From the NCBI GenBank assembly GCA_963809485.1, contig CAWEJX010000020.1, positions 768,001-832,000 on the forward strand: a stretch of 64,000 bases of DNA. Reading direction: 5' to 3'. Below, one piece after another: positions 13,216-18,744 of the stretch; position 1 is the stretch's first letter, and each line of letters starts with the position of its first letter. The notes beneath the pieces are model-generated. The model had not been told where the DNA came from, did not search any database, and worked only from the letters and a program-made list of their open reading frames with translations. The position numbers were made by a program, and so were the translations under genes. The DNA is from an uncultured Acidobacteriota bacterium. GTDB lineage: Bacteria; Acidobacteriota; UBA6911.

Positions 13216-13440
13216 TAACGACCTGCCAGCCCCGGCGCGTGGGTACGATTCCCGAAGCGAACAGTCCCGTCCGCTCATCGGGGCTCAGCTGCGCGCGGTG
13301 CGCCGCCGCCAGCGCCAGGACCTTCATGCTCGTGTCGTCGTTATAAAAAACCTCTCCCTGTGCCGCCTGGCGGATCAGTTCGTCGAAAGCTGGACGTATC
13401 CCCCTGCGGTTTCAGCGACAATCCACCACTGCCACGGGAG
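13216..13440 (-). mobile_element. IS66-family transposase (TnpC) fragment
   Basis: PAFDELIRQAAQGEVFYNDDTSMKVL...ERTGLFASGIV contains the IS66-type DDT motif; frameshifted upstream. Confidence 0.6.
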
Positions 13441-13535
13441 TACCTGCATTTGACGTACAACACCGCCGGAAGATCGCGAACAATCGGTTCCCAATTGTCT
13501 TCCTGAAAAGCCGGGGCTGGTTGCGCCTGGTCCTC

Positions 13536-13925
13536 CTAATAGACAGGCATATCCATGCCCTGATGTTCATGAACTCTGCCGGCGATCTGGACTTCAATCT
13601 CCGCCATACCTGGAATCATCATTTTTGACAGGTAATATTGATCTCCGACCTTGCGGAATCCAACAGTGGCATCTTTCAGCCGTGTTTGCGAACTCGCAGC
13701 GGAGCTGATCTGTGCCATCGCTATTGCCGACATTTTATTCATGCCGACCACTGCAATGCTTCTGCCATCGTTTGACCTGATGAAACGGTATTCCCCGGCC
13801 GGCAGCTGTTTGCCGGAAACGGTAAAGGCAAACGGTACGTCTGCCCGTATTCTCTTTTGCGCGAAGGCGGCAGATGCCGACAACAATGTCACAAGGCAAA
13901 GCGACACGAGAACTTTCATTCTCAT
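13536..13925 (-). CDS. Small secreted beta-rich hypothetical protein (Acidobacteria-type)
   Basis: Signal peptide ending AFA; DVPFAFTVSGKQLPAGEY motif; GGAGG RBS. Confidence 0.82.
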   Translation of the reverse strand: MRMKVLVSLCLVTLLSASAAFAQKRIRADVPFAFTVSGKQLPAGEYRFIRSNDGRSIAVVGMNKMSAIAMAQISSAASSQTRLKDATVGFRKVGDQYYLSKMMIPGMAEIEVQIAGRVHEHQGMDMPVY

Positions 13926-14199
13926 TTTAGGCCTCCTCTCCTCATCGATTCATATTCCCTTCCGTTTTTCCAAAATCCACACTGGTCACAAATTTAAATA
14001 TAGTATTTTGAAATGAAATTTCAATATTGATCTATACAATTGCTCCCTTAAGAAAATAGACAGGAAAGGTTGGGTTATCAGAATGGAAGGCCGAGGTGCG
14101 GGTCGCCATAAACCCATAACGCCATAGATTCAATTACTTAACGGCTATCATTGGATCCTTGGCTGTGTTGCGGAAACCGTTCGAAGGATTTAAAAGAAG

Positions 14200-14221
14200 T
14201 GGCGGAGAGGGGGGAGATTCG
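14200..14221 (-). mobile_element. att-like duplication of the tRNA-Ser 3' end
   Basis: TGGCGGAGAGGGGGGAGATTCG versus the tRNA end TGGCGGAGAGGGGGGGATTCG at 18362. Confidence 0.75.
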
Positions 14222-14385
14222 GCTGGAGCCGATTGGGCGAATCTGTTGGTGGGCATCGACTTATCGATAATATTCATTGTTCGCAATTAGTTGCGCCGTT
14301 TTCCCATAGTTTCCAGGAGTTTCCGCAGTTTCTCCTAAAGCCTCTATTTCCACGAGAAATGGTATCACTGGTATCACCGCTCAGG

Positions 14386-14553
14386 AGCTTATGGGTCGTT
14401 CAAGCGCGTTTTTTGCCTTTTGTCGTCCGGGCCTCTGATAAAGAGTGATATGTAAACTGAATAAAACTCCAGAAACTCAATTTGCATATCAGGCAAAAAT
14501 CATTTTATGCGTGAAAGAGTCGGGAAGGAAACAGAAATAGGAGATTCGCCTTA
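14386..14553. repeat. Island direct repeat, copy A
   Basis: Highly similar to 17816-18076 (GGTCGTTCAAGCGCGTTTTTTGCC...GTGATATGTAAACTGA...GCGTGAAAGAGTCGG...ACAGAAATAGG). Confidence 0.85.
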
Positions 14554-15031
14554 AGAAGACTTCCCCCATGCCCCCCTTGCCCAACCGGTCGGTGACTTCG
14601 TAATGGGCGAGTGTTTTCCCGATCATGCTCCCACCTCCCTCTCAAGCGCTCGAAATGAGTGTTCGAGGACGCCTTAAGCCCAAGTGATCTAAGCGAAAAA
14701 CCGGACGCTAGGGAGCGGGCGTCCGCTCCCCATCCAAGGCAGGCAACGAATGAGGATAGGCTAATGATCGGCCCGCGATGTGGGGGTTGCAAGCAAAATG
14801 TCGATGCCTTGATATGATCAAAAAAGTTAGGCATCCCAGGAACCAGCTATTGGGGCACACTTCCATCTTCCGGTCCGAAAAGTCCCTGAGTGAGAAATAA
14901 CTTGCTTGCCCATATCCAATGCCGCAAGGTGAAGAGGCGATAGCCCAGGATGGCAGGCCGAGCTACTTTGAGATTCTATTGGCCCCCTTGGCAGATAAAT
15001 GGTCGCAGAAAAGCGCATCCCGCCGATCCGG

Positions 15032-15523
15032 TTATTGGCGTTCAAATACCACGACGTTGTTGATCCGTTGACCTTGAGCGTTCGTACCTTTGCTTGTGAA
15101 CGTCATGGTCTTTCCGTCTTTGGAAATCGTTGCGGTATATGAAATAGCGGTCGCCTTCCCATCTGCCTTCAGAATCACCTCTTCCGTGTATGCATTGACA
15201 AGCCTCACCGAAAGCGATTGTGGTACTTTTGCTCCCAGCACAAAATGTGGGTAATCTTTTCCGTCACGCTTGAACGCATCTTGCTCGAACGTCCGATTCC
15301 CCTGGGCGTCAATCCCCTCGCTAGTCCGAAGTATCACTCCGCCTCCCCGATCTTCGAATGTCCACGTAGAACTCCTCGGCGCCGGACCGGGATCGAACTT
15401 CGACTTGGCCGGGTTTGCCTTCCATGTCCCGAAAAAGGGATCAGCGGTTTGCGACAAGGTGAACAGCGACGTGACGACTACAAAAAGCAAGCTCAACATC
15501 AGGCACCTCACAATCCTTCCCAT
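15032..15523 (-). CDS. Secreted beta-barrel (lipocalin-like) hypothetical protein
   Basis: Signal peptide; DPFFGTWKANPAKSKFDPGPAP...ISKDGKTMT...VVVFERQ; AAGGAG RBS. Confidence 0.82.
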   Translation of the reverse strand: MGRIVRCLMLSLLFVVVTSLFTLSQTADPFFGTWKANPAKSKFDPGPAPRSSTWTFEDRGGGVILRTSEGIDAQGNRTFEQDAFKRDGKDYPHFVLGAKVPQSLSVRLVNAYTEEVILKADGKATAISYTATISKDGKTMTFTSKGTNAQGQRINNVVVFERQ

Positions 15524-16223
15524 CTTAGTTCTCCTTTCCTAAGCGAAAGTGCTAGGCCGGCCCGCGGTTTGTCGGCCTAGTGACCGGCAATTGATCTTCT
15601 GGCGGTGCCGCTGCTTTCTTGGATCGAGGCTTGGCTAGCCTCCTTAAGCAATAGCCGCGCTTGGTTTGCCTAATGGCGCGGAAAGCGGAACATGGGAAAG
15701 GAACTGGGGCAATATGGAGTCGCTGCTTGTTCTGGTTACTGTATGTGTAATGCAATATTCTTATCGCAAACTCAAGCTACAGTCAACAATTAGCAGGTGT
15801 CAGTCCACATTTTTGAGTGCCGCAATCACCCGACAGCAGTCCTGCAGCAATTTCTGGAGATAACGTCGCTCCTCGAGGGCAACTTTGAATACCTGCCGTG
15901 CTTTGTCACGGCCTTCCGGATCCACCCAATTCCTTCCTGGTTCTTCGGTCCAGTCGAAATGAAATGATAGGCAATTGCTTTTGCACCCAGGTTGACCGAC
16001 TGCTTCTCTCTCTGCGGCCGTAGCGATAGCATTAAATCGGGGTGGCGACACACGATTGCTGCACATTTTCATACTATTATTTCTTAATAGGCCCTGTGAT
16101 CGTTAAATCTATTTTGAACAAGAGGATTTTCTGTTACAAAAATTATGCAAATAATATAAGAGGGATCTGAAATAACCATAGGAGATAGATGGTGTAAATG
16201 GATAAGAAAGCAAGGATTCAGCC

Positions 16224-16520
16224 ATGAGAGAATCGTTCACCAGACGAAATACCTTGGGATTAGGGCTTGGGTCGGCAATTTTGGGAGCATGCAGCCGGGT
16301 AGCGACCAGTGCTGGAACGCCTACGGTAATCTGCAAGCTTGAAGGGAATCGTGTGCCTGCTTTGAAGCAGTTAAATAATTATGGCGATGAAATGGAAAGC
16401 CTGCTCCTTCTGCGTAGCTCCCCGATAGCAGTAAAGATGCTGAAATCGGAAGCAGATATTCCACAGCCAGATTTATATAAAAAGAGGTTCGAAGCCTGGG
16501 GGATGGAACATAGCAAATGA
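16224..16520 (+). pseudogene. Internally deleted DUF169-like protein with Tat-like leader
   Basis: FTRRNTL...LGAC leader; LLLRSSPIAVKMLKSEADIP (DUF169-like start) joined directly to a short helical tail; only 98 aa. Confidence 0.55.
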
Positions 16521-16793
16521 GCCACACGGCTGAGCTCGCTAAGGCCAATCCATTCCACTATTAACCGAGCTGCAGAAGAATGCCGCGGAAGTGAAGTAAG
16601 GAGCCGTTCCATGTGCTCCGCAAAAAATACTGCAGGTGCCAATTGCCGACCCCTGAAGCTTCATGCAGCGGTTTTAACGATTTGATATTCATGATGTAAC
16701 CTGCCCAAGACAGGTTTGGATGCACAAAAAACAATCACGCTGGCCCGGCTTTTACAGATGGACAAGAAATTGCCTGTTCGTTAGGAAAGGATC

Positions 16794-17567
16794 ATGATTA
16801 TGAGATACGAAACAGTTCTTATGGAAAAAATCGATGGCATTGCCGTCATCACCTTAAATCGCCCCGATAAGCTCAACGCTGTCAATAAGCAAATGAGATC
16901 CGAAGTTCTCGGTCTGCTGGACGAGGTGGAATCGGACGATGGGGTGCGTGTGCTGGTTTTCACTGGAAGCGGTCGCGGATTCTGTGCGGGGGCCGATATC
17001 AGTGAATTCGAAGGGGTCGGGAAGGATCCTCAACTCGAAAGCGGGCGCAGCGGAGACCTGCTCCTGATGCCCAAACGCATTTTCGGGTTTGAAAAACCGA
17101 TCATCGGGGCCATCAATGGAGTGGCAGCGGGAGACGGCGCGCAATGGGTATTGGCCTTTGATTTGAATGTGGCTTCGGAAAGAGCGCGGTTTGGCTGGCC
17201 TGCCACAGGTTTGGGAATCCTCTGACCGTATGGGATCATTAGGCTTCCGGTGGAAGTCGGACGTTTTCGGGCTAAAGAAGTCTTAATGACACGTAAGTTC
17301 CTCAGCGCCCGGGAGGCCTTTGACTGGGGGTTCCTGGCCAAAGTGGTCGCTCCCGAAAAGCTAATGGAGGAGACTCTCGCTCTGGCCGAAGAGATCAAGA
17401 AAATGCCTCCCCTGTCGATCAAGGCGGTCAAACAGGCGGTGAACATGGGTATGGGGGGTTACGAGTATGCCCAGCAGGTGATGATCAATTTGCAGAAGAC
17501 CCAAGATGCCAAAGAAGGCGCCAGGGCATTCATGGAGAAGCGGGAGCCACGATTTGAGGGAAGATAG
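16794..17567 (+). CDS. Enoyl-CoA hydratase/isomerase (crotonase) family protein with in-frame UGA at 17223-17225 (candidate selenoprotein)
   Basis: ITLNRPDKLNA, GFCAGADI, KPIIGAINGVAAG, then GIL-UGA-PYGIIRLP continuing in frame to EGARAFMEKREPRFEGR; 257 codons, a normal crotonase length. Confidence 0.88.
17226..17270 (+). promoter_or_regulatory. Candidate bacterial SECIS element
   Basis: Stem GGCTTCC(17242-48)/GGAAGTC(17252-58) with GGT apical loop starting 24 nt after the UGA. Confidence 0.65.
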
Positions 17568-17815
17568 CCAAAATGGCTGCTGCATAGAAATCCCACCGGA
17601 TCAAACCAGGCAAGGCTTCGCTCTTGATATCCCGCTAAGAAGCAGGGATGGTGAAGCTGGAAGGCAGGGATCCAGGATGGCTCGTGCATAGGCTTCAATA
17701 GCCGGCTCACTTCTTCGGGAAACTCCCAGCCAAAGGGCTCGTCGAGAAAATCCCGAGGTCCCTTCGATATCCTCTCCTCACGCAATCCGGTCAAGAGACC
17801 AAATGCTCGTATTGC

Positions 17816-18076
17816 AGCTTATAGGTCGTTCAAGCGCGTTTTTTGCCTTTTGTCGTCCGAGGCTTTGATAAGGAAAAGGGATCCTTCAGAAGCCGCGCAA
17901 CAAGCGATAACGTTTTACTAACAAAATGCTGTTTGGGCGGTTTCTAAAAGATTTTCTTGAAAAAGTGATATGTAAACTGAAAAAAACTCCAGAAACTCAA
18001 TTTGCAAATCAGGCAAAAATCACTTTATGCGTGAAAGAGTCGGAAAGGAAACAGAAATAGGCCGGGCTTCGCCTTA
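17816..18076. repeat. Island direct repeat, copy B (contains about 90 bp extra internal sequence)
   Basis: Aligns to 14386-14553 on both sides of an insert at about 17872-17962. Confidence 0.85.
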
Positions 18077-18276
18077 GGCCAACCAGCAGAATTTATTAAT
18101 TGATGTAGTGTTCCGTATCGCTTTCCAATACTGCAGATGCTCTGAAGAAGGTAGACGAATTTCATTTTCTTCTCATCTCCATATTTAACGAAGCAGAGGG
18201 GAAATGAGTCAACATTTCCTCGATATGGTAGCTGATGGCAGGAAGTTTTGAATAACCGAGGTTGGAGGGAGTTACA

Positions 18277-18363
18277 GTCCGCCTTCGCCTTCGCTTCGCT
18301 CGGCTACGGCGGACAGCCTTCGCTAAAGCTCCGGCTTGCCAGCCGAAGCTTTAGCGAAGGCTG
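18277..18363. repeat. REP-like tandem hairpins abutting the tRNA 3' end
   Basis: GTCCGCC...GGCGGAC, then CAGCCTTCGCTAAAGCTCCGGCT-tgcc-AGCCGAAGCTTTAGCGAAGGCTG. Confidence 0.7.
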
Positions 18364-18454
18364 GCGGAGAGGGGGGGATTCGAACCCCCGACACCGGTTT
18401 TGCCAGTGTAACTGCTTAGCAGGCAGCCCTGTTCGGCCACTCCAGCACCTCTCC
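18362..18454 (-). tRNA. tRNA-Ser(GCT)
   Basis: Reverse complement GGAGAGG...GCTGC-CT-GCT-AA-GCAGT, long variable arm, GGTTCGAATCC T-arm, encoded CCA; 93 nt. Confidence 0.96.
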
Positions 18455-18744
18455 GTGGGCATTGGGACGGCAGGCCGCAAAAATGAGAGCCCATAGTAAC
18501 TAATTTGCACCTTAAAATCCACCAACAACTCATACCGCATGCACAAAGCCGGAAATCAGGAGCCCGAAGCCGCTGTCCATTTTATTCTGGAATAACCGGT
18601 TCCGAAGAAAATCGAGTTCGCCTGGCTGGGCCGTTTTAAGATACGACAGTTGCGGCAGGCGACTTCCCGGATTTTCCTATCGCAGCTTGGTCACTTTGCA
18701 GCTTAATGATAAGCTTGGTTTTTTGGCGAGGAATTAATACTGTC

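Follow-up and report, generated by a model that had tools for sequence, protein, structure and literature searches.

A candidate selenocysteine-encoding crotonase gene in an uncultured Acidobacteriota bacterium

A gene of the crotonase superfamily in an uncultured Acidobacteriota bacterium is interrupted by a single in-frame TGA, which raises the question of whether this codon breaks the gene or is read as selenocysteine (Sec). The gene lies at 16794-17567 on the plus strand of the stretch analysed here, 64,000 nucleotides (nt) of contig CAWEJX010000020.1 (assembly GCA_963809485.1, positions 768,001 to 832,000), hereafter called the window; the host genome comprises 6.0 Mb in 21 contigs. A sequence-only reading of the window had proposed a selenocysteine-containing crotonase, and comparison with relatives supports that proposal. 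We consider it very likely that the locus holds an intact, full-length crotonase-fold gene, in which the UGA at 17223-17225 would encode Sec and a hairpin at 17242-17258 would serve as the selenocysteine insertion sequence (SECIS). This view follows from the residues found at the UGA column among relatives, the cysteine (Cys) alternative at that column, the translation of the half past the UGA, the selection on the hairpin at the nucleotide level, and the complete Sec machinery of the host.

The UGA codon, its hairpin and the decoding machinery

Translation of 16794-17567 gives one frame with a sole internal stop, TGA 17223-17225 (GIL-*-PYG), and a terminal TAG, and the listing of open reading frames (ORFs) breaks it into two same-frame ORFs, 16794-17225 and 17250-17567. 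The read-through product of 257 amino acids (aa) matches Pfam ECH_1 (PF00378) with residues 14-256 on profile positions 4-250 of 251 (E 6e-50; 170.4 bits against a gathering cut-off of 27), in agreement with the earlier description of two ORFs that are split by one TGA and jointly make a 257-aa crotonase. PF00378 and PF16113 are the only Pfam matches of the protein, and the many NCBIfam enoyl-CoA hydratase models that match it all score far under their curated cut-offs (best, 184 bits against 394). The frame, its internal TGA and its end stand as first described, but the start does not, as it lies two codons upstream of the likely ATG at 16800. Translation probably begins there rather than at 16794, since the closest relative has AGG at 16794-16796, homologues begin with M-x-Y-x-T, and a Shine-Dalgarno-like AGGAAAGGA (16783-16791, plus strand) lies 8 nt 5' of the ATG at 16800, a spacing that suits 16800 and not 16794. 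The predicted selenoprotein coding sequence would thus be 16800-17567 (plus strand), with 255 codons including UGA for Sec and then TAG, and the 255-aa product would carry Sec at residue 142, which is residue 144 in the 257-aa numbering used below.

To describe the UGA column among proteins, we took the best 120 cluster representatives from a search space of 5.8 billion protein clusters. Full-length close relatives (56-69% identical) account for 69 of them, with Cys at this column in 68 and Ala in one. Another 35 (141-160 aa), and one more whose long N-terminus is spurious, stop at ...LG[IL][LVF], the residue before the UGA column, and the remaining 16 are ordinary crotonases at about 40% identity. 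The NCBI name of the 141-aa stumps is 'enoyl-CoA hydratase/isomerase family protein'.

At the DNA level, 40 loci were compared: 21 from species-representative genomes, one from a same-genus relative (genome G006), and 18 metagenome loci obtained with a Cys-form query. The codon at the UGA column is TGA in 32 and TGC or TGT in eight, and TAA and TAG do not occur; no other in-frame stop and no frameshift was found within the gene in any of the 40. The homologues hold Cys or UGA here, not Trp or Arg. The TGA loci, at 60-98% protein identity, span at least three phyla (Acidobacteriota, Thermodesulfobacteriota/'Deltaproteobacteria' and Bacillota), and their carriers are labelled Syntrophaceae/Syntrophales, Desulfobacterales, 'Deltaproteobacteria', Clostridia, Thermincola, Firmicutes and Acidobacteriota; the sole named genome with a Cys form belongs to Dehalococcoidales. 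A TGA form is also present in the cultured species Thermincola ferriacetica (L055 and L057). Sec and Cys forms are mixed on the tree, requiring three changes (two to three in bootstraps). The context in the Sec forms is G-[IL]-[LVF]-U-[PA], with Gly at -3 in 30 of 30. The TGA itself is seen in two species-level genomes, and contigs of two further bioreactor runs cover the UGA without a difference. These contigs carry a G006-like genotype and possibly come from the same samples as the G006 metagenome-assembled genome (MAG), so they are weak and maybe non-independent support, and the contigs X4 and X5 miss the UGA. A locus search with profile alignment A2 relied on generic crotonase motifs, with the matches listed at 42% identity or less, and was used for no count.

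Several observations were made beside these counts. A Clostridia MAG has two contigs (L044 and L048), each with a TGA-form copy followed by a cupin-like ORF and an ORF of 244 or 234 aa; the two copies may be paralogues or strain variants. Two proteins at 43-44% identity, P0093 and P0096, form a sister group that lacks both catalytic glutamates and has Cys at the UGA column (I-G-A-[LI]-C-H-V), so that the clade of Cys-crotonases extends beyond the Sec-containing subfamily. Two further crotonase-like matches at 30% identity contain one in-frame TGA (G009:C143:30257-30997) and one in-frame TAG (G035:C443:10405-11172), and genome G034 gave a generic crotonase match at 34% identity on which no claim is built.

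The comparison indicates that the half of the gene past the UGA is translated. In Nei-Gojobori counts over 30 Sec-form genes (435 pairs; the partial loci L159 and L162 were left out), the median pN/pS values were 0.228/0.812 before the UGA and 0.179/0.808 after it, and the median dN/dS of unsaturated pairs was 0.101 upstream and 0.074 downstream. By these counts the downstream half is under purifying selection as strong as that on the upstream half. The amino acids P-Y-G-I-I-R just after the UGA are kept while each uses two to four synonymous codons, a pattern that excludes a restart at a downstream ATG or GTG.

Bacterial SECIS elements are hairpins inside the coding sequence shortly past the UGA, with a required G in the apical loop, and E. 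coli fdhF is the textbook case. The hairpin predicted at 17242-17258 (plus strand) has a 7-bp stem, GGCUUCC/GGAAGUC, and a GGU loop whose G, at 17249, is the 24th base past the UGA. It is the hairpin GGCTTCC-GGT-GGAAGTC that the earlier reading had placed there, it is part of the minimum free energy (MFE) fold, and it is in the MFE fold of all four Sec forms folded. Its significance rests on the comparison with relatives, not on the fold of a single sequence.

We compared codon usage over 100 columns that have a degenerate codon and the same amino acid in 29 or more of the 30 Sec forms. The median share of the major codon is 0.5, and it reaches 90% in four columns only, +7, +8, +10 and +11, which coincide exactly with the two strands of the stem and the base that opens the loop. 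The frozen codons are Leu CTT, Pro CCG and Glu GAA (each 30/30) and Val GTC (27/30). Six distinct Cys forms (L146 and L147 having been dropped as duplicates) use the same codons in 3/6, 0/6, 4/6 and 3/6 cases, respectively. At +6, the Arg codon ends in A or G without exception, and this base pairs with the U of GTC. Across 31 Sec-form hairpins the stem positions pair in 96.9% of cells, the loop G is present in 31/31 Sec forms versus 0/6 Cys forms, and the Cys form L058 has lost the stem. These results support the view that the hairpin is selected as RNA only in the UGA forms, and they bear out the earlier placement of a bacterial SECIS just 3' of the UGA.

The host itself provides a second hairpin for comparison. 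Its selD (G000:C8:80982-81905, outside the window) is itself a selenoprotein gene, with one in-frame TGA. In the selD SECIS the stem is likewise 7 bp long, and the triloop is GGC at 21 nt past the UGA, compared with GGU at 24 nt in the crotonase gene; given this shared build, the host SelB plausibly accepts the crotonase hairpin. The crotonase hairpin differs from known bacterial elements (the host's own selD and fdhF) in that its sequence is unrelated to theirs and has no Rfam match, and its binding by SelB is a prediction from sequence. In the proposed decoding step, SelB-tRNA(Sec) would be recruited by the hairpin and the UGA would be decoded as Sec.

The machinery for this step is encoded in the host. 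Its selA, selB and selD all score above curated cut-offs, selB lies on the same contig about 36 kb upstream of the window, and a tRNA-Sec with anticodon tca is found on contig C19, so that the selA, selB, selC and selD functions named in the earlier reading are all present. In the genus, selA occurs in 28 of 30 genomes, the two without it being 71% and 76% complete, which indicates that the SelB system is ancestral there. Among the other TGA-form genomes, seven of nine have selA above the cut-off; the two exceptions are a 1.7-Mb MAG with a 45-residue selA fragment at a contig end and a 2.0-Mb MAG without selA. In the one Cys-form genome tested, the 1.4-Mb Dehalococcoidales genome, selA was not found, although absence from an incomplete MAG is weak evidence.

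Several points weigh against Sec decoding through this hairpin. The Sec/Cys contrasts rest on only about three independent switches. The stem codons spell L-P-x-E-V, which is conserved in the Cys forms too, so that the stem is partly driven by coding, and one Cys form, L145, keeps the stem, with a C-U-C loop and no loop G. Compensatory double changes were seen in 0/7 pairs over the 31 Sec-form hairpins, where shuffles were uninformative, and we take covariation as evidence neither way. The fold energy is no better than that of shuffled sequences (z from +0.45 to -1.58; for the window, -0.01 over 48 nt and +0.45 over 74 nt). Finally, there was no Rfam match in 17100-17400 (E up to 10) and no SECIS family in 13300-18700 (E up to 0.1).

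The window's copy and the competing explanations

The alternative that survives best accepts the selenoprotein family as genuine but takes the copy in the window for a recent passenger, silent or non-functional in its host. We judge it unlikely, if far from negligible. The gene occurs in two of 25 genus genomes (its own and 24 others), which share 98% protein identity and TGA at the UGA column, and the next matches in the genus are at 39% identity or less. In a maximum-likelihood tree of 36 family members and three outgroups, this Acidobacteriota pair falls within a clade of a 'Deltaproteobacteria' MAG (99/89) and a Desulfobacterales MAG. The window and G006 have only 1316 bp (16260-17575) in common, at 97.4% identity, while other shared pieces nearby are at 84-95% and rearranged. 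On the G006 side (L041:7394-7466), a 70-nt dispersed repeat abuts the shared segment. As a separate observation, this 70-nt element has at least a dozen copies in the genome that contains the window (contigs C4, C7, C16 and C20). Repeats at the ends of the shared segment are short and at chance level only.

The surroundings are of the same kind. A stretch of about 5 kb, 13300-18300, has a GC content of 0.45-0.53 against 0.55-0.59 in its flanks and contains no ORF above 163 aa except the crotonase; no Pfam family reached its cut-off among the small ORFs of 13.3-18.3 kb or in the 534 bp upstream of the gene. A tRNA-Ser(GCU) gene at 18362-18454 (minus strand) adjoins the end of this low-GC stretch, which looks like a decayed or rearranged island. 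From the distribution over two of 25 genomes, the nesting in the tree, the 1316-bp shared segment and the lower-GC, gene-poor surroundings, the copy was probably acquired horizontally as a 1.3-kb segment. This location in a gene-poor, rearranged stretch counts against a working gene, as does a sigma-70 scan in which no promoter-like site was found on the plus strand upstream; a terminator scan of the same strand upstream of the gene found nothing.

Other features argue against a silent copy. The two species differ in the gene by nine synonymous and six non-synonymous changes (one of the latter at the unused codon 1), none of them in the UGA or the hairpin, compared with 18 differences in the 534 bp upstream of it. 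In addition, the SelB system of the host is ancestral, its own selD has a SECIS of the same architecture, and AGGAAAGGA provides a good ribosome-binding site before 16800. Expression in the Acidobacteriota host is therefore plausible on the evidence of the sequence.

We consider it very improbable that the gene is a split one whose two polypeptides assemble, or that a standard tRNA (Trp or Cys) suppresses the UGA in place of Sec decoding. A GTG or ATG start is available downstream of the UGA in many loci, giving ORFs of 93-105 aa, as a split gene would have. However, the 8-20 codons that separate the UGA from the first such start retain their amino acids while changing freely at synonymous sites, and the break would sit inside the active-site loop of a single domain. 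Read-through without Sec is opposed by the Cys found in 68 of the 69 full-length relatives, by the loop G that all 31 TGA forms have and all six Cys forms lack, and by the co-occurrence of the Sec machinery with the TGA form. It is hardly credible that the gene is a pseudogene, a crotonase inactivated by a nonsense mutation with a hairpin that is a coincidence of coding: gene callers do split the frame, public records do hold 141-aa fragments, and the 5-kb stretch has no recognisable genes and the single-sequence fold no significance, but 32 of 40 loci, from three phyla and at 60-98% identity, have TGA at this one column, no other in-frame stops or frameshifts occur, dN/dS past the UGA is about 0.07, and the hairpin codons are frozen only in TGA forms.

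Active site and gene neighbourhoods

If the UGA is read as Sec, the question becomes where the residue lies in the enzyme. The best solved matches of the protein are the canonical hydratases 5zai, 5xzd and 2pbp (phmmer E 3e-46 to 1e-43), with which it shares the full ECH_1 fold, a length of about 255 aa, and the FCAGADI and G-x-x-A-G-x-G motifs. The first oxyanion-hole motif, FCAGADI (residues 63-69, 16980-17000, plus strand), aligns with F[CAS]AGADI of the solved hydratases, and INGVAAGDG likewise falls on its matching motif; F63, G66, D68, G109 and G115 show no variation in alignment A3. The column of the first catalytic glutamate holds Gln117 (CAA, 17142-17144, plus strand; GGGxE becoming GDGAQ) and that of the second holds Ala137 (GCC, 17202-17204, plus strand; PE becoming PA, in WPA), so that the glutamate columns Q and A and the intact FCAGADI of the earlier reading were recovered in all three alignments.

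The absence of both glutamates, combined with an intact oxyanion-hole motif, is a trait of the entire family. In Sec and Cys forms throughout the clade, W-P-A takes the place of x-P-E, and Q-W that of E-L after the glycine-rich turn; in 21 Cys-form homologues W-P-A is invariant (21/21) and the Q nearly so. Judged by these alignments, the oxyanion hole is kept and both hydratase glutamates are replaced throughout, and the classical two-glutamate mechanism of syn-hydration is thus not available. Canonical hydration is unlikely, and the protein falls outside enoyl-CoA hydratase sensu stricto (EC 4.2.1.17), as its glutamate columns hold Q117 and A137.

When the protein is aligned with hydratases, the Sec column corresponds to the conserved Pro of the G-x-x-P-G-x-G-G loop past the second glutamate, so that the protein differs from canonical hydratases in having Sec or Cys for the loop Pro, in addition to Q117 and A137 for the glutamates, and in a loop that is one residue shorter. 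ScpB Tyr140, to which a catalytic role is ascribed, dienoyl-CoA isomerase Asp204 and the backbone of rat hydratase Gly172 line the active site in the loop of the Sec column. We infer that the protein represents a distinct clade of the crotonase superfamily with Sec or Cys in the loop past the second-glutamate site; by alignment, this is the loop from which other crotonases draw catalytic residues.

The crotonase superfamily combines one oxyanion-hole scaffold with exchangeable acid/base residues. In the speculative scheme that we favour as a framework, the enzyme would bind an acyl-CoA and stabilise its enolate in the oxyanion hole. It is possible, although we stop short of thinking it probable, that the selenol(ate), or the thiol(ate) of the Cys forms, would act as the single catalytic acid/base, protonating or deprotonating C-alpha or C-gamma, as in a reaction of the isomerase, epimerase or decarboxylase type. 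That Sec might supply nucleophilic, isomerase or lyase chemistry was the suggestion of the earlier reading. Alternatively, and in our view rather unlikely, the Sec or Cys would be a Michael-type nucleophile on an enoyl-CoA. The composite proposal remains doubtful and is put forward tentatively: this would be the first crotonase-fold selenoenzyme, in which the place of the glutamate pair is taken by a selenolate (in the Cys forms, a thiolate) that works directly on an acyl-CoA enolate bound in the oxyanion hole, serving as a covalent Michael nucleophile or as the only proton shuttle.

Among known crotonases without the two glutamates, the methylmalonyl-CoA decarboxylase ScpB/YgfG of E. coli offers a comparison. 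The scpA-argK-scpB order of E. coli is the same as that of mutase, B12 subunit, MeaB and Sec-crotonase genes in three Syntrophaceae loci. The protein itself is not a member of the ScpB/YgfG group: it is only 30% identical to ScpB, and no NCBIfam decarboxylase model is among its best 25 matches. In 4-chlorobenzoyl-CoA dehalogenase and dienoyl-CoA isomerase, residues at or after the second-glutamate site act as nucleophile or proton shuttle, with the difference that these catalytic residues are Asp or Glu, not Cys or Sec.

The gene neighbourhoods of relatives were compared by clustering the ORFs of 22 loci and naming 26 neighbours with Pfam and NCBIfam. In the three Syntrophaceae loci (L049:3879-7849, L056:4758-7889 and L061:2697-7280), the Sec-crotonase gene is directly preceded on the same strand by the large-subunit gene of an acyl-CoA mutase, a 136-aa ORF and the MeaB gene, in some cases together with DUF2284 and a C-GCAxxG-C-C (seleno)protein; by eye, the 136-aa ORF looks like the B12-binding subunit of the mutase. 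This mutase/MeaB context is confined to these three of the 22 loci and is not present in the window. At L059, an MmdA-like carboxyltransferase gene lies upstream of the Sec-crotonase. On account of these methylmalonyl-CoA-related neighbours in four loci, a reaction linked to methylmalonyl-CoA or propionyl-CoA may be named as one concrete, if weak, candidate. Elsewhere the neighbours are mixed and include a 4-hydroxybutyryl-CoA-dehydratase-like (HpaB) protein together with an ADC-like protein, an FlK-like thioesterase, DUF169, CGGC and nitroreductase families.

These proposals on chemistry also have evidence against them. The contexts are heterogeneous, no neighbour family occurring in more than six of the 22 loci, which leaves the functional guess weak. 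The protein is 38-41% identical to ordinary hydratases compared with 30% to ScpB, and the column of ScpB His66 holds Ala. The alignment near the Sec column is ambiguous by two residues: against ScpB, hhalign sets Sec on Tyr140, whereas BLASTP sets the invariant Tyr146 on Tyr140 and Sec two residues earlier.

Two further neighbourhoods were noted. A C-GCAxxG-C-C gene (TIGR01909) lies 154-7518 nt from the Sec-crotonase in six of the 22 loci (L043, L045, L046, L052, L053 and L061). The TIGR01909 family has known selenoprotein members, and the protein is possibly a partner, or its position may be mere shared synteny of Syntrophaceae. In a Thermincola MAG (L051:2996-7838), the upstream genes encode MtaB, a B12-binding protein, a CobW-like protein and a RACo-like activase, a methanol:corrinoid methyltransferase set unrelated to acyl-CoA metabolism.

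Standing in the literature and meaning for the family

We know of no description of a crotonase that uses Cys or Sec in catalysis, and our literature searches found none. A full-text search for selenoproteins together with crotonase or enoyl-CoA hydratase turned up only the tables of two reviews. These catalogues contain one ambiguous 'crotonase' selenoprotein row, and both cite Peng et al. 2016 (PMC9312934, PMC13188914). The table of the 2026 catalogue renames this row 'DsbA-like protein form 2', with PF01323 and the motif DxxUP, and contains no PF00378 or other hydratase entry (PMC13188914). A PF00378 family is listed in neither of the two catalogues. What our protein shares with the tabulated row is the name and a U followed by P (PMC9312934, PMC13188914). 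As far as the tables define that row, the two are not the same, since the window protein has no PF01323 domain and has Gly, not Asp, three residues before Sec, so that DxxUP does not match; PRK06023, moreover, does not appear in the 25 top NCBIfam hits of the full or truncated forms. The main texts of Peng 2016 (PMC5029168), of the Olavius symbiont paper and of the GOS paper do not mention a crotonase selenoprotein. It is improbable that the family is the 'crotonase' row of the Peng 2016 supplement, and we regard it as not recognised in the literature searched. Among protein models, NCBIfam release 20 has none for this Sec/Cys-crotonase family.

For sequence records, the consequence is immediate. 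At least 35 public protein clusters are recorded as 141-aa 'enoyl-CoA hydratase' stumps, with their C-terminal halves as separate small ORFs, and once the UGA is read as Sec, the models are mended in genomes of Syntrophaceae, Desulfobacterales, Thermincola, Clostridia and Acidobacteriota. The family also illustrates how a SECIS can be built nearly entirely from codons that the protein needs anyway: L-P-x-E-V supplies the stem, and the third base of the Pro codon is the loop G. Such a coding-compatible SECIS illustrates how easily Cys and Sec interconvert in bacteria. The natural Sec/Cys pairs, some of them 79-82% identical to the Cys-form query, offer a ready comparison of selenium with sulfur in one scaffold.

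For the superfamily, a clade without the glutamate pair, whose catalytic loop carries Sec or Cys, would extend the range of catalytic solutions by a new one. Bacterial selenoproteins are mostly thiol-oxidoreductase-like, and a selenoenzyme acting on CoA thioesters would broaden the chemistry for which Sec is selected. If the proposed chemistry is true, it would be a non-redox use of Sec in CoA-thioester chemistry, and the enzyme may possibly be an unrecognised methylmalonyl-CoA epimerase or decarboxylase, or an enoyl-CoA isomerase, of anaerobes.

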